From Candidatus Eiseniibacteriota bacterium (GTDB taxonomy: Bacteria; Eisenbacteria; RBG-16-71-46), in the NCBI GenBank assembly GCA_016223045.1, contig JACRPT010000037.1, positions 1-62,435 on the forward strand: a stretch of DNA of 62,435 nucleotides. Direction: 5' to 3'. The notes under the pieces were generated by a model that worked only from the letters and a program-made list of their open reading frames with translations, was not told where the DNA came from and searched no databases. Made by a program: the position numbers and the translations under genes. Position 1 is the first letter of the stretch, and every line of letters starts with the position of its first letter. Below, one piece after another: positions 22,109 to 50,706 of the stretch.

Positions 22109-22585
22109 ATGTCGCGCTCCCGCCGTCTCGCCCTGGTCGCCCAGCTCCTCTCCGGCCGCCGCTTCTCGAGCCAGGAGGAGCTGGCCAGGGCGCTGGGCCG
22201 GGCCGGTGTCCACGTGACGCAGGCCACGCTCTCCCGCGACCTGCGCAGTCTCGGAGTCGCCAAGCGCCCCGATGCCGGAGGGCACAGCGTCTACGAGCTG
22301 CCCGGCCCGGCCCACGAGGCGCTCGACCGCGAGCGCCAGCTGCTCGACCTGAGGGCCTTCGTCAACGAGACCCGGGTGGCGCAGAACCTGACGGTGGTGA
22401 AGACCCCGCCCGGACACGCCAACGCCGTCGCGCGCGCGATAGACCTCGCGGCGTTCGACGGCGTGGTGGGCTCGGTGGCCGGTGACGACACGGTGCTGGT
22501 GGTCACGGCGGACGCCGGGGCGGCGAAGCGGTTCCAGCGCCGCCTCGACGGGATCTCGGGACGCCGCGCCGGAGCGGGCAAGTGA
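22109..22585 (+). CDS. argR: Arginine repressor ArgR
   Basis: GGAGGA lies before ATG 22109. wHTH segment [31 protein letters not shown]-terminal [12 protein letters not shown] motif. Confidence 0.85.

Positions 22586-26180: not shown

Positions 26181-26184
<4 letters not shown>
24844..26184 (+). CDS. argD: Acetylornithine aminotransferase (class III PLP aminotransferase)
   Basis: CNSGTEAVEAALKFAR, DEVQCGMGRCG, and the PLP-lysine context LSKALGGGLPLG. GTG 24844 overlaps the argB stop (GTGGCTGA). An Ala/Arg/Gly-rich insertion follows KFARARARARG. Confidence 0.85.
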
Positions 26185-27537
<1,353 letters not shown>

Positions 27538-27548
<11 letters not shown>

Positions 27549-29700: not shown

Positions 29701-29713
29701 GGACCATCGCGCC

Positions 29714-35619: not shown

Positions 35620-37647
35620 ATGACCGACGCGCCCCCCAGCGGCCAGCGTTCCCGGCCCCCCCGGCGGGCCTCGCGCCTGCAGTTCGTGATCCCGGTCGTG
35701 GTTGTCTGTCTCGCGGCCGTCGTGGGCGGCTACCAGATCGTCGAGCGCACGCTGATCGCCCAGCGCGCGTCCACGGAGTCACTGGGCTTCCTCCAGATCA
35801 TCCGCGGCGTCGTCTTCTCCCTGCTCCTCGCGGGCCTCGGGGTCTGGTACCTGCTGCGCAGGAGCGTGCCGGTGTTCCCCTCCTCGCCCGCCGTGGAGGC
35901 GCCGCTCGTCCTCGCCGAAGTGGACGAGCGGGCCCGGCAGCACGCGCGGTGGTTCGTCCACGCCCGGTGGGTCGCGCTGGGCGTCATCCTCGGTCTCATC
36001 CTCATCGCCGGGCCGCTAGCGCGGATGCTGCCGGGCGCGACCCTGGTGCCGCTGCTCGCCTGGTGGGTCGTGCTCCTCGCCGCCAACCTGTGGTTCCACC
36101 GGTCGGTCGCCCGGGTGCGCTCGCCCGAGGGCCACATCATGGCCCAGGCGGTCGCGGACCTGGTCGTCCTCACCGGGCTGCTCAACGCGTCCGGCGGGAT
36201 CGAGAACCCGCTCTACCTCGCCTACATGTTCCACGTCATCATCGCGGCGGTCGTCCTGCCGAAGCGCAAGTCCCTGGCCGTCACCGCCGTGGCGCTGTCG
36301 CTGTTCCTCGCGCTGGTGGTGGGCGAGTCCGCGGACATCCTGCCTCACTACACGAACCAGCTCTTCCCTCATGCCTCGATCGCGGAGCTGGCGCACCAGC
36401 CGGCGAGCGGCCACGAGGACGGGGATCTTCTCCACGCCGCCCACGACCCTCTGTTCGTCACCGGCGAGGCCGGCTCGTTCGTCCTGATGCTCCTGCTCGC
36501 GTCCTGGCTGACGATGCTGGTCACCGACCGCCTGCGCCACAGCGAGGCGCGTCTCGAGCGGACGGCGCGCTCGGCCGTGCTTGAGCGGAAGCGCCTGGAG
36601 AGCGTGGTCCACTCGGCCAAGGTGGGGATGATCCTCCTCGACCCCGACCTCACCGTGCGCTGGGTCAGTCAGCTCGCGTCCGAGTGGCTGGAGTGGGACG
36701 CCTCGGTGATCGGCCGGCGGTGTCCGCTGTACGCCGCGGCCGGGGAGGGCGAGCCCGGCCCGGCCGCGCGCGTCCTCGAGAGCGGGCGGCCCGCCGAGAC
36801 GGAGCGCGCCGTGCCGGCCGCCGACGGCAGCCTGCGCTACTTCCGCCACATCGCCTCCCCGGTGCGCGACGGGACGGGACGGGTGGTGCAGGTGGTGGAG
36901 CTGGTGGAGGACGTCACCATGCGCCGCGCGCTGGAGGCGGAGGCCCTCCACGCCGGCAAGATGTCGGTGCTCGGCCGCATGGCCGCGGGCATCGCCCACG
37001 AGATCGGCAACCCGCTGTCGTCCATGGCCGCGCGGCTGCGGCTGATGGAGCAGAGCAGCGATGCCGAGTTCCTGAGCGGCAGCCTCGCCCTGCTCCAGGG
37101 GCAGGTGGACCGCATCGGGCGCATCGTGCACGGTGTCTCGGAATTCGCGCGGGTGCCGCGGCGGGAATGGACGACCCTGGAGGTGAACGCGGCGGTCGAA
37201 GAGGCGATGAGCGTCGCCGAGCTGGACCCGCGCGTCAACGGCATCGTGTTCCGCCGGGCGATGGCGGCACCCTCGCCGCTCATCCGCGGGGTGCGGGACC
37301 AGGTGGTGCAGGTGGTGCTCAACCTGCTGCTCAACGCCGCGGAGGCGACGTCGGGTCGCGGGACCATCGCGGTCGAGACCTCCCGGCGGCAGGGCGAGGT
37401 CGCGATCGCCGTGCAGGACTCCGGCGTCGGGATGGACGAGCAGGTCCGGACGAAGTTGTTCGAGCCGTTCTTCACGACGAAACCCAGGGGGACCGGGCTC
37501 GGCCTCTCGATCAGCTATGCGCTGGTCCACGCGCACGGGGGCCGCTTCCAGGTGGAGAGCGAGCCCGGCAGGGGCGCCCGGTTCGTCGTCCTGCTCCCGG
37601 CGGCCGAAGCGGTGGCGGCGGCCGGTGGCGCGGGAGTGAAGAGATGA
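35620..37647 (+). CDS. Membrane-bound sensor histidine kinase (multi-TM N-terminus, PAS-like region, HisKA, HATPase)
   Basis: H-box AAGIAHEIGNPLSSM. ATP-lid motifs DSGVGMD and GTGLGLSISYALV. About six N-terminal hydrophobic segments. Confidence 0.85.
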   Translation: MTDAPPSGQRSRPPRRASRLQFVIPVVVVCLAAVVGGYQIVERTLIAQRASTESLGFLQIIRGVVFSLLLAGLGVWYLLRRSVPVFPSSPAVEAPLVLAEVDERARQHARWFVHARWVALGVILGLILIAGPLARMLPGATLVPLLAWWVVLLAANLWFHRSVARVRSPEGHIMAQAVADLVVLTGLLNASGGIENPLYLAYMFHVIIAAVVLPKRKSLAVTAVALSLFLALVVGESADILPHYTNQLFPHASIAELAHQPASGHEDGDLLHAAHDPLFVTGEAGSFVLMLLLASWLTMLVTDRLRHSEARLERTARSAVLERKRLESVVHSAKVGMILLDPDLTVRWVSQLASEWLEWDASVIGRRCPLYAAAGEGEPGPAARVLESGRPAETERAVPAADGSLRYFRHIASPVRDGTGRVVQVVELVEDVTMRRALEAEALHAGKMSVLGRMAAGIAHEIGNPLSSMAARLRLMEQSSDAEFLSGSLALLQGQVDRIGRIVHGVSEFARVPRREWTTLEVNAAVEEAMSVAELDPRVNGIVFRRAMAAPSPLIRGVRDQVVQVVLNLLLNAAEATSGRGTIAVETSRRQGEVAIAVQDSGVGMDEQVRTKLFEPFFTTKPRGTGLGLSISYALVHAHGGRFQVESEPGRGARFVVLLPAAEAVAAAGGAGVKR

Positions 37648-38987
37648 GCGAACGCATCCTCCTCATTGATGACGAGGACATGTTCCGCGAGGACATGGCG
37701 AGCCTGCTGCGCCAGCAGGGCTTCGCCTGCCGCACCGCCGCCAGCGGCGAGGACGGCCTGCGCGCCGCCCAGGCCGAAGCGCCGGACCTGGTGCTCTGCG
37801 ACCTGGTCATGCCGGGCGCCGGCGGACTCGAGGTCGTGGGCCGGCTCGCCGCGCTCTACCCCGAGCTGCCGGTGATCGTCATCACCGCCTTCGGGACGCT
37901 CGAGACCGCCGTCGAAGCGTTCCGCAGCGGCGCCACCGACTACGTGCTCAAGCCGGTCGTCCCCGAGGACCTGCTGGGCAAGGTGGCCCGCTGCCTCGAG
38001 CACCGCCGACTGATGGGCGAGGTGCGCTACCTGCGCCGGGAGGTGTCCGAGGTCCGCGCCGGCGCACGCCTGGTTGGAACCAGCCCGGCCATGGAGGCGG
38101 TCCGCAGGCTGATCGCCCGGGTCGCCGCCGGCGACTCCACCGTGCTGATCCGCGGCGAGAGCGGCACCGGCAAGGAGCTCGTCGCCCGCGAGATCCACGA
38201 GGTCGGGCGGGGGCCCGATCGCCCGTGCGTCGCGGTCAACTGCGCGGCCGTCCCGCGGGACCTGTTCGAGAGCGAGCTCTTCGGGCACGTCCGGGGGGCG
38301 TTCACCGGAGCGGTGCGCGACCGGCCGGGCCTGTTCGAGGTGGCGTCCGAGGGCACGTTGTTCCTGGACGAGATCTCCGAGCTTCCGCTCGAGCTCCAGC
38401 CCAAGCTCCTGCGGGCGATCGAGCAGAAGGAGGTGCTGCGCGTGGGCGAGAGCCGAACCCGGCCGGCGCGGGCCCGGATCGTCGCGGCCACCCAGCGCGA
38501 TCTCCAGGCGGAAGTCGCCGCCGGGCGCTTCCGCGAGGACCTGTTCTTCCGCGTGCGCGTGGTGGAGATCGTGATCCCGCCCCTGCGCGAGCGCCGCGAG
38601 GACATCCCGCTGCTGGTGGAGCACTTCGTCCCGCGCCTCAATGCCCGGCTCAAGCGGCACATCCTGGGCGTGGACCAGGCCGCGATGCGCGCGCTGATGA
38701 GCGCGCCGTGGCGGGGCAACATCCGCGAGCTGGAGAACACCCTGGAACGCGCGATGCTGCTGACCGAGCACGAGTACGTCGGGGTCGGAGACCTCCCGGC
38801 CGAGCTGGCCGGCCGCGCGCACTCCGCGGAACTCTCCGATGACCTCCGCGCGGCGCTGAGCGCGTACGAGCGCGAGCACATCCGCCAGGTGCTGGCTACC
38901 ACCGGCGGGAACCGCGAAGAGGCGGCGCGGCGCATGGGCATCGACGTCTCCACGCTCTACCGCCGACTGAAGGCCCTCGACCTCTAG
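37644..38987 (+). CDS. Sigma-54-dependent response regulator (NtrC family enhancer-binding protein)
   Basis: ATGA overlap with the kinase stop. Receiver domain LLIDDE...LVLCDLVMPG. AAA+ Walker A GESGTGKE. GAFTGA motif. C-terminal Fis-type HTH EAARRMGIDVSTLYRRLK. Confidence 0.9.
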   Translation: MSERILLIDDEDMFREDMASLLRQQGFACRTAASGEDGLRAAQAEAPDLVLCDLVMPGAGGLEVVGRLAALYPELPVIVITAFGTLETAVEAFRSGATDYVLKPVVPEDLLGKVARCLEHRRLMGEVRYLRREVSEVRAGARLVGTSPAMEAVRRLIARVAAGDSTVLIRGESGTGKELVAREIHEVGRGPDRPCVAVNCAAVPRDLFESELFGHVRGAFTGAVRDRPGLFEVASEGTLFLDEISELPLELQPKLLRAIEQKEVLRVGESRTRPARARIVAATQRDLQAEVAAGRFREDLFFRVRVVEIVIPPLRERREDIPLLVEHFVPRLNARLKRHILGVDQAAMRALMSAPWRGNIRELENTLERAMLLTEHEYVGVGDLPAELAGRAHSAELSDDLRAALSAYEREHIRQVLATTGGNREEAARRMGIDVSTLYRRLKALDL

Positions 38988-39269: not shown

Positions 39270-39285
39270 CGGCAGGGTCCTTGCG
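39270..39285 (+). promoter_or_regulatory. Sigma-54 (-24/-12) promoter candidate
   Basis: CGGCAG-GGTCC-TTGCG against consensus TGGCAC-N5-TTGCW. GG at 39271-39272 and GC at 39283-39284. A weaker overlapping GG-N10-GC starts at 39260. Confidence 0.55.
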
Positions 39286-39301: not shown

Positions 39302-39640
39302 ATGGAGCCGCAGAAGGCGGAAGGTCTGGCGCGCAGCCTGATCCAGGCCACGGAGCGCAGTTTTCGAAGCCACCTGGGCGAGCGGGCCAGGGACCGGGAC
39401 TTCATCGGCGAACTCTATCTCGGTCTCAGGCGAACGCTGGCCCAGCTCGATGATGCGGGAGTCCACGAGACGGAGAAGCGGCGCGGGATCGTGGACGAGC
39501 TCGCGCTCACCGCCTATCTCATCGCCGCGTCCCGGCACCCCGGCGCCCAGGTGGATCCGGAGTTGCTCGAGTCGCTGCGAGGCGCGATTGCCCGGGCCTT
39601 GTCGGGCACGGGGCAGACACCCACGGCGCCCGCGTCCTGA
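39302..39640 (+). CDS. Small helical hypothetical protein, first ORF after the sigma-54 promoter
   Basis: ATG 39302 lies only ~18 nt after the -12 GC. No family recognised. The upstream part of track ORF 39035.. contains the regulatory palindromes and is rejected. Confidence 0.4.
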   Translation: MEPQKAEGLARSLIQATERSFRSHLGERARDRDFIGELYLGLRRTLAQLDDAGVHETEKRRGIVDELALTAYLIAASRHPGAQVDPELLESLRGAIARALSGTGQTPTAPAS

Positions 39641-39688: not shown

Positions 39689-40972
39689 ATGGAGGCATGG
39701 CGGAAGCAGCACCGGCTGGTTCTCCCCGTACTGCTGTTGTTCGTCCCCCTGCTGATCGGCGTGGTCAACTCGGCGCGAGCGATTCCCGCCTTCAGCCGCA
39801 AGTACCAGACCAGCTGCACCACCTGCCACTACGCGTTCCCGCAGCTGAACGCGTTCGGCAAGGCGTTCCGCAACAACGGCTACCGGTACCCGGGCGGGGA
39901 TGAGAACTTCCGCAAGGAGGAGCCGGTCAGCCTCGGCAGCGAAGCCTACAAGCAGGTCTGGCCCGACGCGATCTGGCCCTCCGACATCCCCGGGACGTCG
40001 CCCCTCGCGGTCCACGCCATCGGCCAGTACGAGATGAAGTTCCATCAGCCCGACAGCGTGGCCAGGTCCGTCTTCGAATTCCCCGGGGCGGTGGAGATCC
40101 TGTATGCGGGGACGCTGGGCGACAAGTTCTCCTTCTTCGGCGAGGTGGCCGTGGAGACGGAGGGAGGCGCGGTGGAGACCGGGTTCCCGTTTCGCCTGGA
40201 GCTGAACCAGCGCCCGGGCTTCAATGTCGTGCTCGGGAGCTTCGTCGTGGATCCCACGCCCGGCCATCGCAGCCTGATCCCCACCGAGTTCAACGTCTCC
40301 ATGCTGGAGAGCCGGAACGGCTGGATGCTGCACGAGGAGAAGCCCGGCCTCGAACTCTGGGGGGCGGGCAACGGCTCCGGCGGCAGGGGCGGATGGAAGT
40401 ACCAGGCGGGCGTGATGGAGGGGCAGGGAGGTGACGCCGGACGCGACAAGGACGTCTTCGCCCAGGTCACCTACAAGGTCGGCGGACTCGGGGAGCTGGG
40501 CGGGACCGAAGGGCAGGCCAGCCAGACCTCGGCGTTCTACCGCGACAACAGCGTGACGGTCGGCGGCTTCGTCAGCTCGGGGCGGGTCGGGGCGGACCTG
40601 TTCGCGGACAAGGAAGACCTCACCGTCGTGGCCGGCACGCTGGACGCCTGGTACGAGCGGGCGATCCTCAATGCCACGGCGATGAGCATGAACTCCCGAA
40701 TCGGCGGCACGCCGGACCGCAAGAGCCTCGCCTGGTACGCGCAGGGCCAGTATGTCATCTACCCCTGGCTGATCGGGCTGGCCCGCTACGAGTCCACCGA
40801 CGAGGACACGGACGATGCCGTGGATCCGCAGACGACGCTGATCCCCGCGGTGGCCGGCATGGTCCGGGCGAACGTCAAGCTGACGCTCCAGTACGTGCGC
40901 CCCATCAGCGACTACGACGCGCGCAAGGCAGACGAGGAGCGCGTGGTGGCGAAGCTCGACTTCAGTCTCTAG
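39689..40972 (+). CDS. Fused monohaem cytochrome c / outer-membrane beta-barrel protein, Cyc2-like
   Basis: AAGGAG lies before ATG 39689. Signal peptide, then IPAFSRKYQTSCTTCHYAFPQLNAFGKAFRNNGY with a single CxxCH. About 380 aa follow with alternating beta-strand-like pattern, Gly-rich loops, and C-terminus ...VAKLDFSL. Confidence 0.6.
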   Translation: MEAWRKQHRLVLPVLLLFVPLLIGVVNSARAIPAFSRKYQTSCTTCHYAFPQLNAFGKAFRNNGYRYPGGDENFRKEEPVSLGSEAYKQVWPDAIWPSDIPGTSPLAVHAIGQYEMKFHQPDSVARSVFEFPGAVEILYAGTLGDKFSFFGEVAVETEGGAVETGFPFRLELNQRPGFNVVLGSFVVDPTPGHRSLIPTEFNVSMLESRNGWMLHEEKPGLELWGAGNGSGGRGGWKYQAGVMEGQGGDAGRDKDVFAQVTYKVGGLGELGGTEGQASQTSAFYRDNSVTVGGFVSSGRVGADLFADKEDLTVVAGTLDAWYERAILNATAMSMNSRIGGTPDRKSLAWYAQGQYVIYPWLIGLARYESTDEDTDDAVDPQTTLIPAVAGMVRANVKLTLQYVRPISDYDARKADEERVVAKLDFSL

Positions 40973-40995
40973 CCGGGCACGGAGGGCGTGCCCGG
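40973..40995 (+). terminator. Perfect 9-bp stem / 5-nt loop hairpin immediately after the porin-cytochrome stop codon (intra-operon attenuator or stabiliser candidate)
   Basis: CCGGGCACG-gaggg-CGTGCCCGG, starting 1 nt after TAG 40970-40972. No U-tract. Confidence 0.35.
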
Positions 40996-41044: not shown

Positions 41045-41635
41045 ATGAACGGCAGACTGGCAGTCCTTGTGCTGGCGGGCCTGTCGGCCATCGCGGCTCC
41101 CACGGTCGCCGGCACGATCAAGGGGAAGGTCGCGATCCCGCGGGCGAGGAGCCTCGCGAACATCGTGGTGTACGTGGAGAAGGCGCCCGGGGAGTTCCCC
41201 GCGCCGAAGCAGCACACGGTCATGGACCAGAAGAACCTCACCTTCGTGCCGCACGTGCAGCCGGTGGTGGTGGGAACGACGGTGGACTTCCTGAACAGCG
41301 ACCAGGTGCTGCACAACGTCTTCAGCCCCGACAAGTGCGCCAACAAGTTCAACCTGGGGACCTGGCCGAAGGGCGAGACGCGGTCGTTCACGTTCGACAA
41401 GGCCGGCTGCACCCCGGTGCTGCTGTGCAACGTCCATCCGGAGATGGAAGCGTTCGTCGTGGTGCTCCAGAACCCCTTCTTCGCCGTCACCGACAAGAGC
41501 GGGCTCTTCGCGATCCACAACGTGCCGGAGGGCAAGTACACGATCAAGGCGTGGAACCGGAAGTTCCTCGACGTGTCGCAGGAAGTCGCCGTGCCGAAGG
41601 ATGGCGAGGTTCCCTGCAATCTGGCGCTGAAGTAG
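41045..41635 (+). CDS. Periplasmic cupredoxin (type-1 blue copper protein) with an N-terminal carboxypeptidase-regulatory-like beta-sandwich
   Basis: Signal peptide MNGRLAVLVLAGLSAIAAPTVAG. Copper ligand candidates are His in VLHNVF and the amicyanin-like spacing C-N-V-H-P-E-M. Confidence 0.7.
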   Translation: MNGRLAVLVLAGLSAIAAPTVAGTIKGKVAIPRARSLANIVVYVEKAPGEFPAPKQHTVMDQKNLTFVPHVQPVVVGTTVDFLNSDQVLHNVFSPDKCANKFNLGTWPKGETRSFTFDKAGCTPVLLCNVHPEMEAFVVVLQNPFFAVTDKSGLFAIHNVPEGKYTIKAWNRKFLDVSQEVAVPKDGEVPCNLALK

Positions 41636-41747: not shown

Positions 41748-42260
41748 GTGCGACGACTCGCATCCGGGATGGCCGTGGTGGCGGTGATGGCGGCGGCAGG
41801 CTCTGCGGGCTGCGCGCGGGAGGTTCTTCAGCCGGTGGCGTTCAACCACCGGCTGCATGCGGACAACAACGTCCCCTGCCTCACCTGCCACCCGACCGCG
41901 GCCACCGGCCAGGGCGCCACCCTCCCGGCGGTGTCGGTGTGCCGGCGCTGTCACGAAGACGTGCTCTACGAAGCCCCGGAGGAGGCGAAGATCCGGCTGG
42001 CGGCCGAGAGCGGCCACGCGCTCGGCTGGGTGCCGGTCTTCGCGCTGCGCCCCTACGTCTACTTCTCCCACCGCCGCCACGTGACGCTCGGGAAGGTCGC
42101 CTGCGCCGCGTGCCACGGCGACGTCGAACGGCGCAGCACCCCGTTCCGCATGGCCGCCGGGCCGTTCTCGGGCATCCGCGGGATGGGAGCGTGCCTGCGC
42201 TGCCATGACGAGAGCCACAGTCCCTACGCCGGCGTGGACTGCGTGGATTGCCACCGATGA
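41748..42260 (+). CDS. Pentahaem c-type cytochrome lipoprotein (ActA/QrcA-like)
   Basis: Lipobox AAAGSAGC. Five CxxCH motifs: CLTCH, CRRCH, CAACH, CLRCH, CVDCH. Confidence 0.8.
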   Translation: MRRLASGMAVVAVMAAAGSAGCAREVLQPVAFNHRLHADNNVPCLTCHPTAATGQGATLPAVSVCRRCHEDVLYEAPEEAKIRLAAESGHALGWVPVFALRPYVYFSHRRHVTLGKVACAACHGDVERRSTPFRMAAGPFSGIRGMGACLRCHDESHSPYAGVDCVDCHR

Positions 42261-42279
42261 GCGCGGCAGGATCGGCCTC

Positions 42280-44703
42280 ATGAGCGCACTCAGCCGGCGC
42301 GAGTTCCTGACCACGCTCGGCGCCGCCGGCGTGGTGGCCGCCTCATCCGGATGGTTCACGCGCCGCCTGTTCGCCATGGCGGAGGAAGGCACGCTGCGGG
42401 CGCCGCGCGGCCCGGGCGTGGAACGCTGGGTGCCCACGCTGTGCCGCATGTGTCCGGCGGGGTGCGGGCTCCGGGTGCGGCTGGTGGACGGGCTGCCGGT
42501 GGGACTCGAAGGCGACCGCACGAACCCGCTGAGCGCCGGCGGCCTGTGTCCCGCGGGCTTCGCCGGACTTCAGGAGCTGGTGCACCCGGACCGGGTCCGC
42601 ACGCCGCTGCGTCGCGACGGGCCGCGCGGTTCGGGACGCTGGACCCCGGTCTCGTGGGATGAGGCGCTGGAGCAGATCGCGGCGCCACTCCGCGCGTCGC
42701 GGGCGGAGGGCCGGCCGCAGGCGTTCGCGGTGCTCGAACGGGGCGACTCCCCGCTCACGCTCTACTGGCTGGAGCGCGTGTTGCGCGCCCACGGCAGCCC
42801 GAACCTGGTGGTGGACGCCACGGGTGAGCCATGGCGCAGCGCGTGGGCGACCGTGGCCGGGACCGCGCGACCGCCGGCGCCCGATCTCGCGAACGCGGAC
42901 TTCGTCCTGAGCTTCGGCCACGAGTCGCTCGAGACCGACGGCCACCCGGTGTGGCAGACCAAGACCTGGGGTCGCCTGCGGGCGCCCATCGCCGCGCGCC
43001 AGGCGAGCGCCGCGTACGTCGGACCACGCATGTCGCCGACCGCGAACCATGCCGACCTGAAGGTGGCGGTGCGCCCGGGCACGGAAGCCATCATGGCCCT
43101 CGGCCTGGTCCACGTCCTGATCCTGGAGGACCTGGCGGACCGCTCGTTCCTCGACCGCTTGACCCGCGGCTATCACGACCGGCCCGGCGGCTCGGGCGCG
43201 GGAGGCGACGGCTTCGAGGCCTACGTGCGCAGCCGTTTCGGCCTCGAGGAGGTGAGCCGCCTCACCGGCGCCCCGGTCAGCGAGATCTTCCGCCTGGGAC
43301 GCGCCTTCGGCACGTCGCGGCGGCCGCTGGCGCTGGCCGGACCCGGCGCGCTCTCGGGGGAAATCGGGTTCGCCACCGCGATGGCGGTGATCGCCTTGAA
43401 CCTGGCGGTGGGGGCGATGGGGCGCACGGGCGGCTACGTGGCGTCGGGCGGCGCACCCCTCGACCTGCCGCCGCCAGAGGAGCCGGACCAGGTGGCGCGC
43501 CGTGGGCTCTCGTCCGCGCGGGTGGATGGCGCCGGATGGGCCACGCTCCCGCTGGTCCGCCAGAGCCCGGCCGGGTTGGCGGCGAACCTCGCCGCCCGGC
43601 GGCCCTACCCGCTGGAGGTGCTCCTCGTCCACGGCGTCAACCCGGTGCACGAGTGGCCGGGAGGAAAGACGATCGAAGAGGCGCTGGCCGCCGTGGGTCT
43701 GGTGGCGGTGGTCGGAGCGGTGGCGGACGAGACCGCCCGCGTCGCGGACCTGATCCTGCCGGAAGCGAGCTTCCTCGAGGCCTGGCAGATCCTGCCGCCG
43801 GCGACGGGGATCCCGTTCGACTACGCCGGCCTGCAGCAGCCGGTGTTGGAGCCGATCTACCAGAGCCGCGCCTTCGAGGACATGTGGTTCGACCTCGCCC
43901 GCCGCATCGGCGGCCCGGCGGCGGCGGCGGTCCCCGCGGGCAGCTACGCCGACTGGCTGCCGAGCGCCGCCGCCGGACTCCACCGCGCCGGCCGCGGGAC
44001 CATCGCGGGCGGACCGTTCCACGCGCGCGTCGCCGGCTTCATGGAGGAGCGCGGCTGGAAGGCCCCGGGCCCGCAGACGGCCGAGGCGTTCTGGGAGGAG
44101 TTCCGGCGGTCGGGCTCGTGGGTGGACGCGCCGCGCGGCGAGCACTCGCCTGCCGAGCTGCTCGGCGACCGCGCGGAGCGCTTCGACCTCTGGCCGGAGA
44201 GGCTGCTCGCCGACGCGCGGAAGCTGACCGGGACGCCGGTCGCGGACGACGCCCTCTACGGCGGCGCGCGGGCGGCGGCCGCGGGCGCGGCCGGCCATTC
44301 CGATCATCCTCTCCATCTCCTGCTCTTCGACACCAGCACGCTGTGGGCCGGCCGCACGGCGCTCACGCCGGTGCTGCTCGAGATGTCGGGATTCCGCGAG
44401 GACATCGGCTGGGACAGCTGGGTCGAGATCCACCCCGAGACCGCGCGGCGCGGACGGATCCAGGCCGGCGACCGCGTGCGGCTGGAGTCTCCCGCGGGGT
44501 CGCTCATCGCGCGCGCCCGGATCACCCCGGTGGTCCCCCCCGACGCGGTGGCCATGCCCCGCGGCCTCGGCCACCGCCACTTCGGCCGCTTCGCGACCGG
44601 CGTCGGCGTCAACCCGCTGGCACTGGTGGCTCCCGCCCTCGACCGCTGGACGGGCAACGCGATCCTCGAGACCCGCGTCCGGCTGACGCGGATGCCGGCG
44701 TAG
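42280..44703 (+). CDS. TAT-exported molybdopterin-oxidoreductase-family subunit (ActB1/QrcB/PsrA-like)
   Basis: Twin-arginine leader MSALSRREFLTTLGAAGVVAASSG. N-terminal 4Fe-4S motif CRMCPAGCG...GGLCPAG. MopB-like length and a C-terminal beta-barrel-type segment. Confidence 0.85.
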   Translation: MSALSRREFLTTLGAAGVVAASSGWFTRRLFAMAEEGTLRAPRGPGVERWVPTLCRMCPAGCGLRVRLVDGLPVGLEGDRTNPLSAGGLCPAGFAGLQELVHPDRVRTPLRRDGPRGSGRWTPVSWDEALEQIAAPLRASRAEGRPQAFAVLERGDSPLTLYWLERVLRAHGSPNLVVDATGEPWRSAWATVAGTARPPAPDLANADFVLSFGHESLETDGHPVWQTKTWGRLRAPIAARQASAAYVGPRMSPTANHADLKVAVRPGTEAIMALGLVHVLILEDLADRSFLDRLTRGYHDRPGGSGAGGDGFEAYVRSRFGLEEVSRLTGAPVSEIFRLGRAFGTSRRPLALAGPGALSGEIGFATAMAVIALNLAVGAMGRTGGYVASGGAPLDLPPPEEPDQVARRGLSSARVDGAGWATLPLVRQSPAGLAANLAARRPYPLEVLLVHGVNPVHEWPGGKTIEEALAAVGLVAVVGAVADETARVADLILPEASFLEAWQILPPATGIPFDYAGLQQPVLEPIYQSRAFEDMWFDLARRIGGPAAAAVPAGSYADWLPSAAAGLHRAGRGTIAGGPFHARVAGFMEERGWKAPGPQTAEAFWEEFRRSGSWVDAPRGEHSPAELLGDRAERFDLWPERLLADARKLTGTPVADDALYGGARAAAAGAAGHSDHPLHLLLFDTSTLWAGRTALTPVLLEMSGFREDIGWDSWVEIHPETARRGRIQAGDRVRLESPAGSLIARARITPVVPPDAVAMPRGLGHRHFGRFATGVGVNPLALVAPALDRWTGNAILETRVRLTRMPA

Positions 44704-44705: not shown

Positions 44706-45398
44706 ATGGCGCGCTGGGGGATGGTCATAGACCTCGACCGGTGCACCGGCTGCGGCGCCTGCGTCGCCGCCTGCAAGGTCGAGAACAACGTCCAGGTCGT
44801 CAGCCCCGCCGAGGGGGAGCGCGGGCGCCGGATGCACTGGCTGCGTCTCCTGGTCGAGGCGCGGGGCGAGTACCCGCACGTCGAGGTCCGCATCGCGCCG
44901 AACCTCTGCATGATGTGCGAGAACCCCCCGTGCACCAAGGTGTGTCCGGTGCACGCCACCTACCGCGGCGAGGACGGCCTGGTGGGCCAGATCTACCCGC
45001 GCTGCATCGGGTGCCGCTACTGCATGGCGGCCTGTCCCTACAGCGTCAAGGCATTCAACTGGGGCAGCCCCGAGTGGCCGGAGGCGCTCCTCTCCACCCT
45101 GAACCCGGACGTCTCGATGCGGCCCAAGGGCGTCGTGGAGAAGTGCACCTTCTGCTACCACCGGCTGCAGCTCGGCCGGGAGAAGGCGCGAGCCGAGGGA
45201 CGTCCGCTGCGCGAGTCGGATTACCAGCCGGCGTGCGTGCACAGCTGTCCGGCGGACGCCATGACCTTCGGCGACCTGGACGACGCGCTGAGCCCGGCCG
45301 CCCAGTTGAGCCGGAGCACGCGGGCGACGCGCGCCCTGGAGCACCTGGGCACCGAGCCGCGGGTGTTCTACCTGGAGAAGCGTGATGCGCCGCTTTGA
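44706..45398 (+). CDS. 4Fe-4S ferredoxin-type subunit (ActB2/QrcC/PsrB-like)
   Basis: Four cluster motifs: CTGCGACVAAC, CMMCENPPCTKVCP, CIGCRYCMAACP, CTFC...ACVHSCP. Confidence 0.9.
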   Translation: MARWGMVIDLDRCTGCGACVAACKVENNVQVVSPAEGERGRRMHWLRLLVEARGEYPHVEVRIAPNLCMMCENPPCTKVCPVHATYRGEDGLVGQIYPRCIGCRYCMAACPYSVKAFNWGSPEWPEALLSTLNPDVSMRPKGVVEKCTFCYHRLQLGREKARAEGRPLRESDYQPACVHSCPADAMTFGDLDDALSPAAQLSRSTRATRALEHLGTEPRVFYLEKRDAPL

Positions 45399-46731
45399 GC
45401 CGGACAGCACCCGGGACGAGACGCTGTTCCGCCCGATCGAGCAGACCGGCGCGAGGTTCTACCTCACGGTCTCGGTGCTGGTCGCGATCATCCTGTTCGC
45501 GCTCGTCATGTACACGCGCCAGGTGGTGCTGGGTCTCCGGGTCACCGGGATGATGCAGCCCGTGACCTGGGGGTTCTACATCGTCAACTTCGTCTTCTTC
45601 ATCGGCATCAGCCACGCCGGCACGCTGATTTCCGCGATCCTCCGCCTCACCCAGGCGGAGTGGCGACGCCCGATCACGCGCATGGCGGAGGTGATCACGG
45701 CCATCGTGCTGGCGATCGGCGCGCTCCATCCCATCCTCGACCTGGGACGGCCCGACCGGGTGATGAACGTCTTCCTGTTCGGGAGGCTGCAGTCGCCGCT
45801 GCTGTGGGACGTCACCAGCATCAGCGCCTACTTCGCCGCCAGCACCGTGTACCTGTTCCTGCCGCTGATCCCCGACATCGCGCTGATCCGGGAGCGCGGG
45901 AAGAAGCACCGCTGGCTCTACACGTTCATGTCCTGGGGCTGGCAGGGGACGCCCGAGCAGTGGAAGGTGCTGACCCGCGCCATCAACATCATGATGATCG
46001 TGGTGGTGCCCATCGCGGTGTCGGTGCACACGGTGATCTCGTACATCTTCGCGATGACGCTCCAGTCCGGCTGGCACAGCACGATCTTCGGGCCCTATTT
46101 CGTGGTGGGAGCCATCTTCTCCGGCATCGCCGCGCTGTTCGTGGCGATGATCGCGTTCCGGAGCGCCTTCCGCCTGCAGGCCTACCTCAAGCTCGTCCAC
46201 TTCCAGCAGCTCGCCAAGCTGCTGCTGGCCATGTCGATCCTGTGGACGTACTTCACCTTCGGCGAGTACCTGACGGGCTACTACGGCGGCGAGCCGGAGG
46301 AGATGAAAACCCTGCTCTACAAGGTCGCCGGCCGCTACGCCCCGCTGTTCTGGACCATGGTGGTCTGCAACTTCGTGGTCCCGGTGGTGCTGCTGAGCTC
46401 CCGGCGGTTGCGCACGATCCCGGGGATCCTGGTCTCCTCGATCACGGTGCTGATCGGGATGTGGCTCGAGCGGCTGATCATCGTGGTGCCCAGCCTGGAG
46501 AACCCGCGCATGCCGTTCCCGGGCCGCATCTACATCCCGAGCCTGACCGAGATCAGCCTGTTCACCGGGGCGCTGGCGCTGTTCGCGCTCGGCTTCGTGC
46601 TGTTCTCCAAGTTCTTCCCGATCGTGTCGGTGTGGGAGGTCCAGGAAGGGCGGGCGCTGGGCAAGGAGGAGACGGTGGAGCGCGTGGAATCGTACCTGCC
46701 CGACGACGAGGTGTCCCATGCGGGCGCCTGA
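45382..46731 (+). CDS. NrfD/PsrC-type integral membrane quinone-interacting subunit (ActC/QrcD-like)
   Basis: About 10 hydrophobic segments. N-terminal ...WGFYIVNFVFFIGISHAGTLISAILRL is typical of the NrfD family. It overlaps the FeS gene by 17 nt. Confidence 0.85.
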   Translation: MMRRFEPDSTRDETLFRPIEQTGARFYLTVSVLVAIILFALVMYTRQVVLGLRVTGMMQPVTWGFYIVNFVFFIGISHAGTLISAILRLTQAEWRRPITRMAEVITAIVLAIGALHPILDLGRPDRVMNVFLFGRLQSPLLWDVTSISAYFAASTVYLFLPLIPDIALIRERGKKHRWLYTFMSWGWQGTPEQWKVLTRAINIMMIVVVPIAVSVHTVISYIFAMTLQSGWHSTIFGPYFVVGAIFSGIAALFVAMIAFRSAFRLQAYLKLVHFQQLAKLLLAMSILWTYFTFGEYLTGYYGGEPEEMKTLLYKVAGRYAPLFWTMVVCNFVVPVVLLSSRRLRTIPGILVSSITVLIGMWLERLIIVVPSLENPRMPFPGRIYIPSLTEISLFTGALALFALGFVLFSKFFPIVSVWEVQEGRALGKEETVERVESYLPDDEVSHAGA

Positions 46732-46987
46732 CCCGCACGCGCCGTCCTGGCATCCGCGGGGCATCCGGGTGCTGCAGATCCTGTCCATCGTGCTGATGTG
46801 GGCGTTCCTGGGCGGGGTCGTGGCGTGGATGGTGAACGTGGTGCAGCTCTCGCTGTCCCTCGGCGACGCGCTCACGGTCTCGGTGGGCATCAGCCTGGTG
46901 GTGATCCCGGTCTACACCCTGGTCGCCGGCGTGCTGACCTACGTCTTCTTCGGCCTCCAGCGGGGCCGGCGGGATCCGGAGAGCTGA
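46718..46987 (+). CDS. Small two-TM membrane protein (possible accessory subunit)
   Basis: Two hydrophobic helices. Overlaps the NrfD-type gene at its 5' end and is coupled to the next gene by TGATG. Confidence 0.45.
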   Translation: MRAPDPHAPSWHPRGIRVLQILSIVLMWAFLGGVVAWMVNVVQLSLSLGDALTVSVGISLVVIPVYTLVAGVLTYVFFGLQRGRRDPES

Positions 46988-48192
46988 TGCGCACGACCGG
47001 GGCACGGTGCCGAGCGGGCTGCCGCCAGCGGGCCGCCCGCGTGGCCCGGGCCATCGGGCTCGTCGCGGCATGGATGATGTTCGTCCCGGGCGAGATCCGG
47101 GCGACGACGCCCGGGCGCTTCCCGGACGTGGCGGCCGGCCAGGCGCTGATCCAGCAGAAGGGCTGCGCCAACTGCCACGGCGTCCTGGGATCGGGCGGGC
47201 GCCAGGGGCCCGACCTGCTGCGGATCGCGCGGGGCAAGGGCGCGGCGGCGCTGCTGGCCGACATGTGGAACCACGTCCCGCAGATGGTGGCCGCACTGCT
47301 GACCGGGGAGCGGCTGCCCGCGCTCTCGGCAGGAGAGCTGCGCGACCTGGTCGGATACCTCAACTTCGTCAACTACCTCGGTGACCCCGGGGACGCCGGG
47401 CGCGGCGGCGCGGCGCTGGCCCAGATGCCGTGCCTGGCGTGTCATGACCTCGGCCAGCGCGGGAAGATCGGGCCGGCGCTGATGGTCTCCACCCGGGCGG
47501 CGTCCCCGGTCGGGCTGGTGACGGACCTGTGGAACTATTACCCGGGCATGCACGCGGCGCTCCGGGAGCGCGGTCTGCCGTGGTTCGCCTGGAGCGGGGA
47601 TCTGCTGACCGACCTCTCACGCTACCTGGCGTCGCTGGCGCCGGCGGGCAGCCCCGCGCCGCTGCTGGCGCCGGGGGATCCGCAGGAAGGGAGCCGCGTG
47701 TTCGCTCGCATCGGCTGCGAGCGATGCCACGGCCCATCGGGCGCGGGCGCCTGGGCCGCGCTGCTGCGCAGATCGAACGCCCGGAGCGCCGCCGAGAACG
47801 GCGCCGCGCTGCTCGGGCACCTGCCCGCGATCGGCGGGGGCGCCGCGGACGCCCTGCGCCCGCTGTCCGAGAAGGACATGGCGGACCTGCTCGCCTACCT
47901 GAGCCTCGCCGGCACGGAGGTGCCGGGCGGGGACGCGCGCGCCGGCCGCGAAGTGTTCGCGCGTGACCGGTGCGGCACTTGCCACGCGCTCCCCGGCCGC
48001 AAGCCCGGCATCGGACGCGACGTGCAGGACATGCCCGCGATCGGGGACCCGTACGACGTGGCCGCGCTGATGCTGCAGCACGCACGCAACATGAAGACGG
48101 CCACGGAACTCAAGCACGTCCCGTGGCCGCAGATAAGGCCCGATGAGCTGCTGGACCTGTATGCCTTCCTCGCCAGCCAGCCGCGCCGCTAG
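46987..48192 (+). CDS. Tetrahaem protein built from four class-I-like cytochrome c domains
   Basis: CANCH, CLACH, CERCH, CGTCH. N-terminal hydrophobic anchor. Confidence 0.75.
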   Translation: MRTTGARCRAGCRQRAARVARAIGLVAAWMMFVPGEIRATTPGRFPDVAAGQALIQQKGCANCHGVLGSGGRQGPDLLRIARGKGAAALLADMWNHVPQMVAALLTGERLPALSAGELRDLVGYLNFVNYLGDPGDAGRGGAALAQMPCLACHDLGQRGKIGPALMVSTRAASPVGLVTDLWNYYPGMHAALRERGLPWFAWSGDLLTDLSRYLASLAPAGSPAPLLAPGDPQEGSRVFARIGCERCHGPSGAGAWAALLRRSNARSAAENGAALLGHLPAIGGGAADALRPLSEKDMADLLAYLSLAGTEVPGGDARAGREVFARDRCGTCHALPGRKPGIGRDVQDMPAIGDPYDVAALMLQHARNMKTATELKHVPWPQIRPDELLDLYAFLASQPRR

Positions 48193-48202
48193 CGGCGCTC
48201 GT

Positions 48203-50236
48203 GTGAGCGGCGCGCGGGCGGGCGCGGTGCGTGGACTACGGCGCGCGCGCCGGGCGCTCGCGCTGCCGGCGGGCGCGGTGCGTGGGCTGGGGCGCGTGCG
48301 CCGGACGCTCGCGCTGCTGGCGATGGCCGTGGCTCTGGCCGGTTGCGGTCGCGCCGTGGAACAGCGCGGGACGGACCCGCAGGGCGGCGCCGCGGCGCTC
48401 CCCGCGGTGCTGGTCAACGACTCCCTGAGCGTCGAGGACCGCTGCATCGCCTGCCACCGCGGCGTGCTCGATCCGCGACACAAGCTGGACCCGCAGCCCC
48501 TCACCACTCATCCGGGACGCCTGCTCGACATCCACTCCCCGCTGCGCTTCGGCTGCACCTCCTGCCACGGCGGCGACGGCGGCGCGGCCGGCGTCCGCGA
48601 GACGCACGGGGCCTGCTCGAGCCGGCTGGGATTCCTCGTCGGCGACGCCGCCGAGATCGCCTGCGGCAAGTGCCACCTGAACGAGGTCGAGCTCGACGGC
48701 GCGCCCCGCCTGAGTCACGGCCGCGCGCTGCTCCGCCGTTCCCACTGCGACGGGTGCCACGAGATCGGGGAGGCCGCCCGGAGCGGGCAGCCCGGACCGG
48801 ACCTCGCCGGGATCGCGCGGCGCACCAACCCGTCCTGGCTGTTCCGCTGGCTCAAGAATCCGCGCGACTACGCGGACAACGCCCGCATGCCGCGCTACCA
48901 GCTCGAGGACCGCTACGTGGACGCGCTGGTGGGGTACCTGATGACGTTCCGCGGCGAGGCTCCGTTCGACACCACCGCCTTCCCGCCGGGAGACGCGGAG
49001 CGCGGGAAGAACCTGGTGCGGCTCTCCTTCTGCATCAGCTGCCACGCCATCGAGGGCAAGGGCGGCAGGGACGCCATCGATCTGGGGCGCGTGGGGAACA
49101 AGCTCACGCGTGGCTGGATGCTCCGGCTGCTCTCCGACACGCACGGCGCCGACCCCTCCAGCCCGATGCCGCAGTACCGCTTCACGCCCGCGCAGGTGGC
49201 GGATGTCGCCGCCTACTTCCGGGAGGAGCTCACCGATCCGTCGTTCGAAGGGGTCGAGGCCGATTCCGCGCTGGACAGGCTCGGCGCCTGGTGGCCCGAC
49301 GAGGCGCGGCGCGTGGATGTCGGACGGCGCCTGTTCAAGGAGCTGCGCTGCGGCAACTGCCACGCCTTCCCCGGCGGCGAGGGCTGGATCCGCGTGGCGC
49401 CGATCCTCTCGCGGCTGGGCGAGAAGAAGACCTCCGATCTCCCCTGGGGCACGACGCGGTTCGCGCGCACGCTGGAGGACTACGTGTGGCGCAAAGTGGA
49501 GAACCCGCTGGTCTTCGCCACCGCGCCGCATCGCTTCAAGATGCCCACGTACGACTTCACGCCGGAGGAGGCGCGGGACGCGACCATCGCGCTGCTCGCT
49601 CAGGCCGACCTGCCGGTGCTCCCGGAGGCCTTCGTCGTGCGCGACTCGACCGACGCGGCGCTGCCCCTGCCGGGCGAGTTCGGGCGCCTGGTGCGCCGGT
49701 ACCGCTGCCTCTCCTGCCACTCGGTGAACGGGATCGGGCACAACATCTCCTACGATCTCGGGGCGGAAGGCAGCCGGGCGCAGCGGGACTGGATCTACCA
49801 GTACTTGAAGCTCCCCTACACCATCCGGCCGATCCTCACCGTGCGGATGCCGATCTTCAACCTCACCGACGAGGAGGCGCGGATCCTCGCGGATGGCATC
49901 GCCGACTCGTGGCGGGATGCGCGGGCGGATTCGGCGGGCGATTTCCCCGCGGGGCCGCGCGAGCTGGAGGCCGGCCGCAGGCTGTTCGAGCGCAGCGGCT
50001 GCCGGAGCTGCCACCAGGTGGGTGCGACGGGCGGCTACGTCGGCCCGAGCTTCACCAGCGGCACGCCGATGGCCCGCAGGCTACGACGCGGATGGATCGT
50101 GCGCTGGCTGCAGAACCCGCAGGCGATCAAGCCCGACGTGCTGGAGCCGCGCTACGGCTTCTCGGAGGCCGAGGCGCGGGCGCTCGCCGCCTACCTCATG
50201 ACGCTCGGCCCGACCGGGGAAGGGAGCGCGCGATGA
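48203..50236 (+). CDS. Octahaem c-type cytochrome lipoprotein
   Basis: Lipobox LAMAVALAGC. Eight CxxCH motifs: CIACH, CTSCH, CGKCH, CDGCH, CISCH, CGNCH, CLSCH, CRSCH. The start is uncertain; GTG candidates at 48203, 48227 and 48278. Confidence 0.75.
   Translation: MSGARAGAVRGLRRARRALALPAGAVRGLGRVRRTLALLAMAVALAGCGRAVEQRGTDPQGGAAALPAVLVNDSLSVEDRCIACHRGVLDPRHKLDPQPLTTHPGRLLDIHSPLRFGCTSCHGGDGGAAGVRETHGACSSRLGFLVGDAAEIACGKCHLNEVELDGAPRLSHGRALLRRSHCDGCHEIGEAARSGQPGPDLAGIARRTNPSWLFRWLKNPRDYADNARMPRYQLEDRYVDALVGYLMTFRGEAPFDTTAFPPGDAERGKNLVRLSFCISCHAIEGKGGRDAIDLGRVGNKLTRGWMLRLLSDTHGADPSSPMPQYRFTPAQVADVAAYFREELTDPSFEGVEADSALDRLGAWWPDEARRVDVGRRLFKELRCGNCHAFPGGEGWIRVAPILSRLGEKKTSDLPWGTTRFARTLEDYVWRKVENPLVFATAPHRFKMPTYDFTPEEARDATIALLAQADLPVLPEAFVVRDSTDAALPLPGEFGRLVRRYRCLSCHSVNGIGHNISYDLGAEGSRAQRDWIYQYLKLPYTIRPILTVRMPIFNLTDEEARILADGIADSWRDARADSAGDFPAGPRELEAGRRLFERSGCRSCHQVGATGGYVGPSFTSGTPMARRLRRGWIVRWLQNPQAIKPDVLEPRYGFSEAEARALAAYLMTLGPTGEGSAR
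48220..48321 (+). repeat. In-frame 51-nt tandem duplication inside the leader-peptide region of the octahaem cytochrome gene
   Basis: Copy 48220-48270 (GAVRGLRRARRALALPA) and copy 48271-48321 (GAVRGLGRVRRTLALLA), about 44/51 identical by hand alignment. Confidence 0.8.
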
Positions 50237-50706
50237 ACCGCGCGCGACGGTGGAGCGCCGCGGCCGCACTGCTCCTCGCGGCGGCCTCCGTGCTGCCCGG
50301 CTGCGGTCCGCGCCGGGGCGGACGCGCCGAGCCCGCGCGCGCCGACTCGAGCTTCGCCGCGGTCACCTACCGGCGGGACAAGTCGCCCGAGGCGCTGTCG
50401 CTGGCACGGGGGCGCGTGCTCTACGACCGCTACTGCGCCATCTGCCACGGCGAGGCGGGCGGCGGCGACGGCTTCAACGCCTACAACGTGAAGGCCGCAT
50501 TCGACGTCTCCCCGACCGCGTTCACCGATTCGGTGACCTTCGGCGCGCTGCGCGAGGACACGGCGCTGGCCGCGATCCGCGACGGCGGGCCCGCGGTCGG
50601 CAGGTCGCCGGCGATGCCGCCGTGGGGACACACGCTCACGGCCGGCGAGGTCGTGGACGTGTGGGCCTACATCAAGGCCCTTTCGCGCGCGGCGCCCGGG
50701 GAGTAG
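50233..50706 (+). CDS. Monohaem class-I cytochrome c lipoprotein
   Basis: ATGA overlap with the preceding stop. Lipobox SVLPGCG. CAICHG, with distal Met context SPAMPPWG. Confidence 0.75.
   Translation: MNRARRWSAAAALLLAAASVLPGCGPRRGGRAEPARADSSFAAVTYRRDKSPEALSLARGRVLYDRYCAICHGEAGGGDGFNAYNVKAAFDVSPTAFTDSVTFGALREDTALAAIRDGGPAVGRSPAMPPWGHTLTAGEVVDVWAYIKALSRAAPGE

Follow-up and report, generated by a model that had tools for sequence, protein, structure and literature searches.

The cytochrome-porin gene and its product

We analyzed a 62,435-nucleotide (nt) contig of a Candidatus Eiseniibacteriota bacterium (GenBank assembly GCA_016223045.1, contig JACRPT010000037.1; this whole stretch is referred to as the window), and within it a gene for a predicted outer-membrane porin with an N-terminal c-type haem motif, which we read as a Cyc2-like fused cytochrome-porin. 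The open reading frame (ORF) occupies 39689..40972 on the + strand, starts with ATG, ends with TAG and encodes 427 aa. An AAGGAG is located 7 nt 5′ of the ATG, and the GC content at third codon positions is 0.92, similar to that of the window's other credible genes (window GC 65-78%).

Inspection of the translated sequence indicated a signal peptide at residues 1-31 (39689..39781, +), with a basic n-region, a hydrophobic LVLPVLLLFVPLLIGVV and cleavage after A-R-A (ARA/IPAF); the AlphaFold2 (AF2) model described below has a helix at residues 2-26. After A-R-A, the mature protein reads IPAFSRKYQTSCTTCHYAFPQLNAFGKAFRNNGY. Residues 32-104 (39782..40000, +; AIPAFSRKYQTSCTTCHYAFPQLNAFGKAFRNNGY) comprise a monohaem cytochrome c domain, with its CxxCH at 39815-39829, and a conserved linker of 60 aa between the haem domain and the barrel. 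The haem motif sits within AIPAFSRKYQTSCTTCHYAFPQL. The protein has no cysteines besides C43 and C46 and hence a single CxxCH (C43-T-T-C46-H47), which is followed by a P-x-L element (H47-Y-A-F-P51-Q-L53; PQL at residues 51-53) in which the proline is the fourth residue past the CxxCH histidine. Residues 105-427 (40001..40969, +) form a predicted 16-stranded outer-membrane β-barrel, as judged from AF2, DSSP and Foldseek, and the chain ends in ...KLDFSL. An earlier note on this DNA had described a 427-aa product with a signal peptide, a single CxxCH, a following P-x-L and a hydrophobic C-terminal ...KLDFSL, all of which read as quoted in the translated ORF. It had also placed the gene first among the redox genes, and the gene indeed heads a co-directional run that reaches 50706.

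Conservation of the haem motif and the predicted barrel fold

Across 53 aligned homologues with 47-78% identity to the window protein, P33, R37, Y39, T41, S42, C43, T45, C46, H47, Y48, P51, L53, N54, F56 and G57 are invariant. A protein-collection search returned >1,100 homologues, all labeled "hypothetical" and the best at 78% identity, while scans of the protein against Pfam and NCBIfam matched no family. When 1.84 billion cluster representatives were searched with a family profile, 3,509 clusters were found at E ≤ 1e-3 and 313 at E ≤ 1e-30. We also inspected a further sample of 149 representatives of 50%-identity clusters: 141 contain one CxxCH, two contain two, and the six that contain none are mostly fragments. 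The usual haem context in this superfamily sample is AIPxFARKYxTSCxTCH...P.L..FG..F..NGY. Because the CxxCH and its flanks are kept across homologues and cluster representatives, the motif is a conserved functional element. The conservation in orthologues on which the earlier proposal depended is therefore present, and all close database matches likewise carry the haem motif.

In one barrel strand, M334 (~40688-40690), within the motif M-x-M-N-S, is nearly invariant. The conserved stretch that follows the haem motif (residues 48-104; 39830-40000), including an insert discussed below, has invariant lysines at positions 76 and 88 and contains no histidine or methionine able to be the distal haem ligand. 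Given that this stretch offers no such candidate, the sixth haem ligand might come from the barrel, with M334 as a candidate.

An AF2 model built with the 53-sequence alignment and with haem absent has a mean pLDDT of 72.8 and a pTM of 0.72. Residues 26-104, including the haem domain modeled without its haem, are of low confidence, and residues 105-427 form a β-barrel with pLDDT mostly 80-95. DSSP assigned 17 strand segments to the barrel. Since two of these, 161-165 and 168-175, are separated by two residues and were taken as one bulged strand, the barrel in the model has 16 strands. Foldseek comparison with the PDB returned 16-stranded porins as the best matches, namely OmpT, OmpU, OmpC, Omp32 and chitoporin (E ~1e-9, target-normalized TM-scores of 0.56-0.68); OprP (2o4v), one of the two templates cited for the OprO/OprP likeness of Cyc2 (PMC8406198), ranks 23rd with an E value of 1e-8. 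At the sequence level, the family profile matched nothing in the PDB beyond chance (equinatoxin, E 0.3). The proposal that the remainder of the protein is an amphipathic β-strand porin is thus upheld by the model, which is neither soluble nor helical in fold.

The resemblance of the barrel to general porins, together with the absence of any curated family that recognizes the protein, is what one would expect of an ordinary diffusion porin whose CxxCH is fortuitous or vestigial and binds no haem. Against this, the CxxCH and at least ten flanking residues are invariant over many phyla at 47-78% identity, the motif recurs in 143 of the 149 further cluster representatives (the exceptions are mostly fragments), and the gene is always found among cytochrome and copper-protein genes. 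On the strength of motif invariance and redox-gene context, we rejected a chance CxxCH in an ordinary porin as extremely improbable.

Comparison of the N-terminal domain with proteobacterial Cyc2-like proteins

Keffer et al. 2021 (PMC8406198) described Cyc2 as having a signal peptide, a single CXXCH with AXPXFAR[Q/K][T/Y] upstream of it and PXL four residues downstream, a 16-strand porin and a length of at least 365 aa; their strict filter is PXFAR[Q/K][T/Y]. The window protein has the signal peptide (by inspection), one CXXCH, the PXL, a predicted 16-strand barrel and 427 aa. Its upstream signature is A-I-P-A-F-S-R-K-Y, in which serine for alanine is the sole mismatch to that of Cyc2; FARKY itself is present in orthologues of the 53-sequence alignment and in most superfamily representatives. 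The window protein shares with Acidithiobacillus ferrooxidans Cyc2, Leptospirillum Cyt572 and Mariprofundus ferrooxydans Cyc2PV-1 (McAllister 2020, Keffer 2021) the signal peptide, the N-terminal CxxCH, the P-x-L, the A-x-P-x-F-x-R-K-Y spacing and the 16-strand predicted porin.

A 58-aa bait made from the published motif retrieved proteobacterial N-terminal fragments of at most 102 aa, for example AVPSFARQTGMACAACHTVFPELTPFGREFKLNGY, and the spacing on both sides of the haem motif is the same in the window protein as in the proteobacterial AVPSFARQTG..C..CH..FPELTPFG sequences. A tblastn search of plasmids found four full-length Cyc2-like genes (Caballeronia, Ideonella, Methylocystis and an A. 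ferrooxidans plasmid), each followed by a c-type cytochrome gene, and the family profile aligned with these four proteins over approximately their first 50 residues at 20-41 bits. Profile-profile alignment (hhalign) with a 44-sequence alignment of the Acidiphilium/Acidocella type gave 98.6% probability and an E value of 6e-16 over the signal peptide, the haem domain and the first barrel strands. The same alignment exposed an insert of ~30 aa (RYPGGD...WPSDIPG) that is conserved in, and specific to, the family of the Fibrobacterota-Chlorobiota-Bacteroidota (FCB) type. These comparisons indicate, at the level of sequence, that the N-terminal domain is homologous to that of proteobacterial Cyc2-like proteins. 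Taken with the identical motif spacing and the predicted barrel, they support the reading of the gene as a Cyc2-like fused cytochrome-porin, as the earlier note had named it.

The protein also departs from Cyc2 in several respects. It has FSR, it carries the insert between haem domain and barrel, its barrel has no detectable sequence similarity to those of the proteobacterial members, and its host is Eisenbacteria-like and probably heterotrophic. Some of the evidence in fact weighs against the Cyc2 reading, and we set out here the part that concerns the protein itself. The literal filter PXFAR[Q/K][T/Y] is missed by one residue (FSR vs. FAR). A barrel-only profile-profile comparison with the proteobacterial Cyc2-like barrel was not significant (probability 0.9%, E 0.06); as sequence similarity of the barrels is undetectable, common ancestry of the whole protein is not demonstrated, and this result agrees with the published remark that the porin part of Cyc2 is poorly conserved. 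Finally, the comparators are uncharacterized proteobacterial homologues, and the window protein is tied to the characterized Cyc2 proteins through these, the published motif and one paper's annotation.

We also considered a conduit of the MtrB type. MtrCAB, MtoAB and PCC resemble the window protein in joining an outer-membrane barrel to c-type haem for electron exchange over the outer membrane, but they consist of separate porin and multihaem proteins with 26-strand barrels, whereas the window protein is one polypeptide with one haem motif and 16 predicted strands. This candidate was rejected.

The proteobacterial searches yielded further observations. The Cyc2-like gene (455 aa) on the plasmid of A. 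ferrooxidans YQ-N3 (CP084173.1, locus L085, 1836-4743) was rejected as a copy of the characterized Cyc2 as it belongs to the Acidiphilium/Acidocella type; it is followed by a c-type cytochrome gene and adjoins a transposase gene. A plasmid of Acidiphilium cryptum JF-5 was matched by the same query region with identical statistics (H13, 56.3% identity, 51 bits). The Cyc2-like and cytochrome gene pair therefore seems to have moved horizontally among acidophiles. In addition, four ORFs of 87-93 aa (P0296, P0298, P0310 and P0312) consist of a Cyc2-type signal peptide and haem domain only (AVPSFARQTGM.CAACHTVFPELTPFGREFKLNGY). Three of the four are on long contigs (170-316 kb) and three terminate in short tails that resemble one another (...RRPSV, ...YRRSV). 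Such ORFs may encode mini-cytochromes that stand alone, or may result from frameshifts or gene mis-calling.

Orthologues in the FCB phyla and earlier reports

The best genomic matches are metagenome-assembled genomes (MAGs) of Candidatus Eisenbacteria, in which the cytochrome-porin is 72% (locus L004), 69% (L050) and 63% (L005) identical to that of the window and the neighboring genes are 63-91% identical. These relatives, with the GC content of the window, bear out the earlier attribution of the DNA to a non-proteobacterial, very GC-rich genome. Remoter orthologues (31-55%) occur in Ignavibacteriota, Bacteroidota, Calditrichota, Latescibacterota, Zixibacteria, Gemmatimonadota, Fidelibacterota and Acidobacteriota. 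The DNA is accordingly very likely that of an Eisenbacteria-like bacterium of the FCB group. The window protein is a member of a subfamily of the FCB phyla and Acidobacteriota.

Genes of this type have been reported before. PMC9769843 lists 39 MAGs with Cyc2 homologues, Eisenbacteria, Calditrichota and Gemmatimonadota among them, and its supplementary N-terminal alignment contains an AIPAFARKY... sequence from Dive96_bin2.117 (Eisenbacteria). Locus L041, from that same MAG, encodes a protein that starts AIPAFARKYKTSCSTCHYAFPRLNGFG and has 45% full-length identity to the window protein; for the protein of L049 (Gemmatimonadales Dive96_bin10.104) the full-length identity is 42%. The published FCB-group homologues therefore belong to the same orthologous group, and L041 and L049 share the neighboring genes as well. 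According to PMC8478452, MAGs of Ignavibacteriales, Zixibacteria and Eisenbacteria likewise have iron-cycling genes detected by FeGenie, most of them Cyc2, and L006 and L020, from the DeMMO MAGs of that study, carry the cytochrome-porin gene. As Eisenbacteria Cyc2 homologues are already published, the window gene is a further case of a known type and its non-proteobacterial host is not new; the novelty that the earlier note had implied for a Cyc2 outside the Proteobacteria does not stand. What differs is the treatment of the context: in the available parts of these reports the gene is listed as a marker, and we found there no account of a cupredoxin partner, alternative quinone modules or sigma-54 regulators.

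A cupredoxin gene follows the cytochrome-porin gene

The gene after the cytochrome-porin gene (41045..41635, +) encodes a putative periplasmic type-1 copper (cupredoxin) protein with a C-terminal immunoglobulin (Ig)-like (CarboxypepD_reg) domain, an assignment that rests on its ligand set, profile matches and synteny. The N-terminal half contains an amicyanin-like copper ligand set, H90 and C128-N-V-H131-P-E-M134. These ligand residues are invariant in a 17-sequence alignment, and the C-x2-H-x2-M loop is found in 73 of 74 orthologues. Profile matches were obtained with cupredoxin domains of Cu nitrite reductases (2e-5 and 1e-4), a blue copper protein (1e-3) and amicyanin (6e-3), and for the C-terminal half with NOMO-type Ig domains (1.8e-11). 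The Pfam Copper-bind score of 18.7 bits lies under the cut-off of 21.2, and a single-sequence AF2 model (pLDDT 36) did not confirm the fold.

To examine synteny, we compared the window's proteins with 83 related loci by tblastn. The cupredoxin gene is located 1.2-1.5 kb past the start of the porin gene in ~75 of these loci, from at least eight phyla. In the literature that we searched, no description of a cytochrome-porin/cupredoxin-Ig pairing was found. A neighboring blue-copper protein, c-type cytochromes and a quinol:cytochrome c complex are also features of the rus/pet system of A. ferrooxidans. Unlike rusticyanin, however, the window copper protein has the amicyanin-like loop and the Ig-like domain, and there is no rusticyanin among its database matches; nor is the coupling complex of the window a bc1 complex as in A. 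ferrooxidans, being instead an ACIII/Qrc hybrid, where ACIII denotes alternative complex III.

Two types of quinone module occupy the same slot

The coupling complex is encoded on the + strand downstream of the cupredoxin gene. Its first gene (41748..42260) specifies an ActA/QrcA-like pentahaem cytochrome c with five CxxCH motifs, which matches Pfam Cytochrome_C7 and scores 68 bits against NCBIfam QrcA (cut-off 180). It is followed by an ActB1/QrcB-like, molybdopterin-oxidoreductase-like subunit with a Tat-type leader and an uncertain start codon (42205..44703; Pfam Molybdop_Fe4S4, Molybdopterin and Molydop_binding; QrcB 241 bits, cut-off 440), an ActB2/QrcC-like four-cluster ferredoxin subunit (44706..45398; QrcC 285 bits, cut-off 400; DsrO 181 bits; Pfam Fer4 families) and an ActC/QrcD-like integral membrane subunit of the NrfD type, predicted to interact with quinone (45382..46731; Pfam NrfD 116 bits; QrcD 40 bits, cut-off 570). 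Pfam and NCBIfam thus place genes for multihaem cytochrome, molybdopterin-like, four-cluster iron-sulfur (FeS) and NrfD subunits together. The next ORF (46718..46987) encodes a small, hydrophobic membrane protein of 89 aa that matches no family, stands in an ActD-like position and is conserved in the ACIII-type loci.

Three further cytochrome c genes complete the run. The first (46987..48192) encodes a protein with three class-I domains, recognized by Pfam Cytochrom_C and Cytochrome_CBB3 in three stretches, whose start was set from the 401-aa orthologue of locus L001. The second (48143..50236) encodes an octahaem lipoprotein with eight CxxCH motifs, composed of a multihaem N terminus and four class-I/FixO-like domains (Pfam Cytochrom_C 104 bits, Cytochrome_CBB3, FixO). 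The last (50233..50706) encodes a monohaem lipoprotein (Pfam Cytochrome_CBB3 46.8 bits), and the gene after it is on the opposite strand.

The order of pentahaem, molybdopterin-like, four-cluster FeS, NrfD and small membrane subunits followed by c-type cytochromes is like that of ACIII (ActABCDEF) and Qrc (QrcABCD). Unlike in ACIII, the B1 and B2 parts are separate genes, as they are in Qrc, and no second NrfD-like gene (ActF) is present in the co-directional run; unlike either complex, that of the window is encoded alongside an outer-membrane haem-porin and a cupredoxin. Because all NCBIfam Qrc scores fall under the equivalog cut-offs and ActF is lacking, we call the complex ACIII/Qrc-like and assign it to neither.

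Among the related loci, 64 had sufficient downstream sequence for typing of the module after the cupredoxin gene. An ACIII/Qrc-like module is found in 11, a GltD-like FAD/FeS protein with a Rieske protein and cytochrome b in 49, and neither in four. The ACIII/Qrc-like loci are from the window's close relatives, several Calditrichota, one Bacteroidetes, one Lentisphaeria and one Deferribacteres MAG, and their NrfD subunits are 69-91% identical. The second type is exemplified by L003 (2147-8476), in which a GltD-like NAD(P)/FAD/FeS protein is encoded with a Rieske protein and a split cytochrome b; such a set is reminiscent of the bc complexes with a link to NAD(P) that have been proposed in anammox bacteria, and by analogy the module could carry out quinol-driven NAD(P)+ reduction. 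In both types an octahaem cytochrome and a small (monohaem) cytochrome c come next, the octahaem homologue lying ~6-10 kb downstream in most loci of either type. Since two functionally analogous quinone-coupling complexes share one slot, there is good circumstantial evidence that the cassette links the outer-membrane haem-porin to the quinone pool. In the literature searched, we did not find this conserved cassette described.

Regulatory genes and candidate elements flanking the cytochrome-porin gene

Upstream of the cytochrome-porin gene are genes for a membrane PAS histidine kinase (35620..37647, +; Pfam PAS_4, HisKA and HATPase_c) and an NtrC-type, sigma-54-dependent response regulator (37644..38987, +; Pfam Response_reg, Sigma54_activat at 220 bits, and HTH_8). 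Of the 83 related loci, ~55 also have the kinase and regulator genes upstream of the cytochrome-porin gene, and the regulator is conserved ~2 kb upstream in most related loci. A weak sigma-54 (-24/-12)-like element, CGGCAGGGTCCTTGCG (39270..39285, +), with correctly spaced GG and GC, is tentatively assigned at -419 from the start codon; the identical 16-mer is located 119 nt upstream of the orthologue in Eisenbacteria L004. Over 81 loci, canonical sigma-54 promoters were not enriched upstream of the gene, and the matches in the window are not above chance.

Between this element and the cytochrome-porin gene is an ORF of 112 aa (39302-39640, +; MEPQKAEGLARSLIQ...) that matches no Pfam family. 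No gene is called at its position in L001, and in L004 the gap of ~294 nt, with the element at -119, leaves no room for one. The ORF could have been inserted here, or might be no gene at all.

Directly after the stop codon is a GC-rich stem-loop (40973..40995, +; CCGGGCACG-gaggg-CGUGCCCGG) with a nine-bp stem and a 5-nt loop. Folding of the intergenic region gave z = -2.8 relative to shuffled sequences, and -3.6 when the flanks were included, so the strong hairpin that the earlier note had seen here is real at this level of analysis. It has no U-tract, and a terminator scan called nothing after the gene. Comparable stem-loops occur in L003, L028 and L041 (one locus each from Ignavibacteria and Calditrichota, and a second Eisenbacteria locus) and in none of the closest relatives L001, L004 and L050. 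Because of this absence and the lack of a called terminator, we did not adopt the earlier argument that the hairpin would allow a different stoichiometry from the downstream genes; a role in differential expression is a bare possibility.

Proposed route and direction of electron flow

We consider it probable that the gene encodes a Cyc2-type fused cytochrome-porin that exchanges electrons with dissolved Fe(II) and is connected through the copper protein to the downstream chain. Under this proposal, a haem in or at the barrel would exchange single electrons with dissolved extracellular redox species, most probably Fe(II); the haem-porin would pass them to the periplasmic type-1 copper protein of the next gene, and the copper protein to the c-type cytochromes and the ACIII/Qrc-like quinone-interacting complex. 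From there, electrons might be driven uphill into the quinone pool, or the cytochromes might deliver them to a terminal oxidase whose genes lie elsewhere, and the PAS kinase and sigma-54 activator probably control expression. Such a chain would mirror the A. ferrooxidans scheme of Cyc2 to rusticyanin to cytochrome c/bc1 (PMC10367259). Our observations extend to the ORF, the conserved haem motif, the predicted fold of the barrel, the homology at the N terminus and the conserved neighborhood; that haem is attached, that the protein lies in the outer membrane, which partner it exchanges electrons with, which way these flow and that Fe(II) is the substrate are all inferred.

The genomic context adds to the points already raised on the other side. 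Most of the carriers are predicted to be heterotrophic, iron reduction is known from some relatives, and the operon contains no terminal oxidase or carbon-fixation gene. Moreover, the usual direction of electron transfer in ACIII and bc complexes is from quinol to cytochrome c or cupredoxin, and outward flow is at least equally compatible with this; in Chloroflexus, for example, ACIII reduces the blue copper protein auracyanin. The same module could accordingly be read in reverse, with quinol feeding the ACIII/Qrc-like or Rieske/cytochrome b complex, then the cytochromes and cupredoxin, and finally the haem-porin, which would reduce chelated Fe(III), Mn(IV), humic quinones or another acceptor outside the cell. 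Besides the established quinol:cytochrome c and quinol:cupredoxin oxidoreductase activity of these complexes and the makeup of the operon and its carriers, outward flow would suit the description of Ignavibacteria as iron reducers and the co-occurrence of iron "oxidation" and "reduction" genes in organisms of several MAG studies (PMC8478452, PMC7914226, PMC9769843). It is at odds with the fact that every biochemically tested protein of the Cyc2 kind oxidizes Fe(II) (PMC8406198, PMC7029218). In addition, type-1 copper proteins and class-I c-type cytochromes are usually of high potential and poor for reducing Fe(III) oxides, and the known outward conduits rely on multihaem chains and not on a single haem. 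We regard outward flow as the main rival reading, plausible in view of its complexes and hosts but unlikely.

A partner other than iron must also be weighed. "Cyc2-like" may describe the architecture only: the dissolved partner could be, for example, Mn(II), a reduced form of sulfur or iodine or a soluble shuttle, or the protein could serve mainly in detoxification or in sensing of the extracellular redox state. The family is very large and extends over many phyla and habitats, and it has in this subfamily its own conserved 30-aa insert after the haem motif and a dedicated PAS-kinase/sigma-54 pair. The authors who defined Cyc2 noted that homologues outside cluster 1 need functional checks (PMC8406198), a caution repeated in PMC9769843. 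On the other hand, there is no positive evidence for another substrate, and the source habitats, which are many, are iron-rich (deep mine fluids, groundwater and vent chimneys). A non-iron partner thus appears quite improbable, and we retain dissolved Fe(II) as the favored one.

Extending the proposal from the gene to its neighborhood, we tentatively suggest, as something that may well prove otherwise, that the locus is a sigma-54-controlled, horizontally mobile and self-contained cassette. It would consist of a haem-porin entry point, the cupredoxin-Ig protein, an interchangeable quinone complex (ACIII/Qrc-like, or Rieske/cytochrome b with a GltD-like NAD(P)-binding flavoprotein) and the octahaem cytochrome, and would give otherwise heterotrophic bacteria of many phyla the capacity for extracellular electron exchange. 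Its copper-first periplasmic route, and possibly its direction, would be unlike those of the proteobacterial Cyc2 pathway.

Other features of the window

Two very large secreted proteins are encoded at 13443-19772 and 22043-30745, one with a zinc-metalloprotease-like HExxH and FG-GAP/VCBS-like repeats and the other BNR/sialidase-like. Elsewhere in the window is an arginine cluster of argR-like, argG, argH fused to an acetyltransferase-like C terminus, and argF genes. The GC content drops to ~0.65 at both window ends.

Significance

Cyc2 is the main genetic marker from which microbial iron oxidation is inferred in metagenomes, its function is unverified beyond a few Proteobacteria and Leptospirillum, and the periplasmic electron path is an acknowledged gap. 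The window locus leaves the known distribution of Cyc2-like genes unchanged, and, as we see it, little is new in the gene itself, whereas the conserved cassette is moderately novel. The neighborhood found in the FCB group, with its copper protein, quinol:cytochrome c-type complex, octahaem cytochrome and regulators, supplies concrete and clonable candidates for the partners of the cytochrome-porin, and the locus offers a way to test both the "iron oxidation" calls made in heterotrophs and the direction in which the chain runs.

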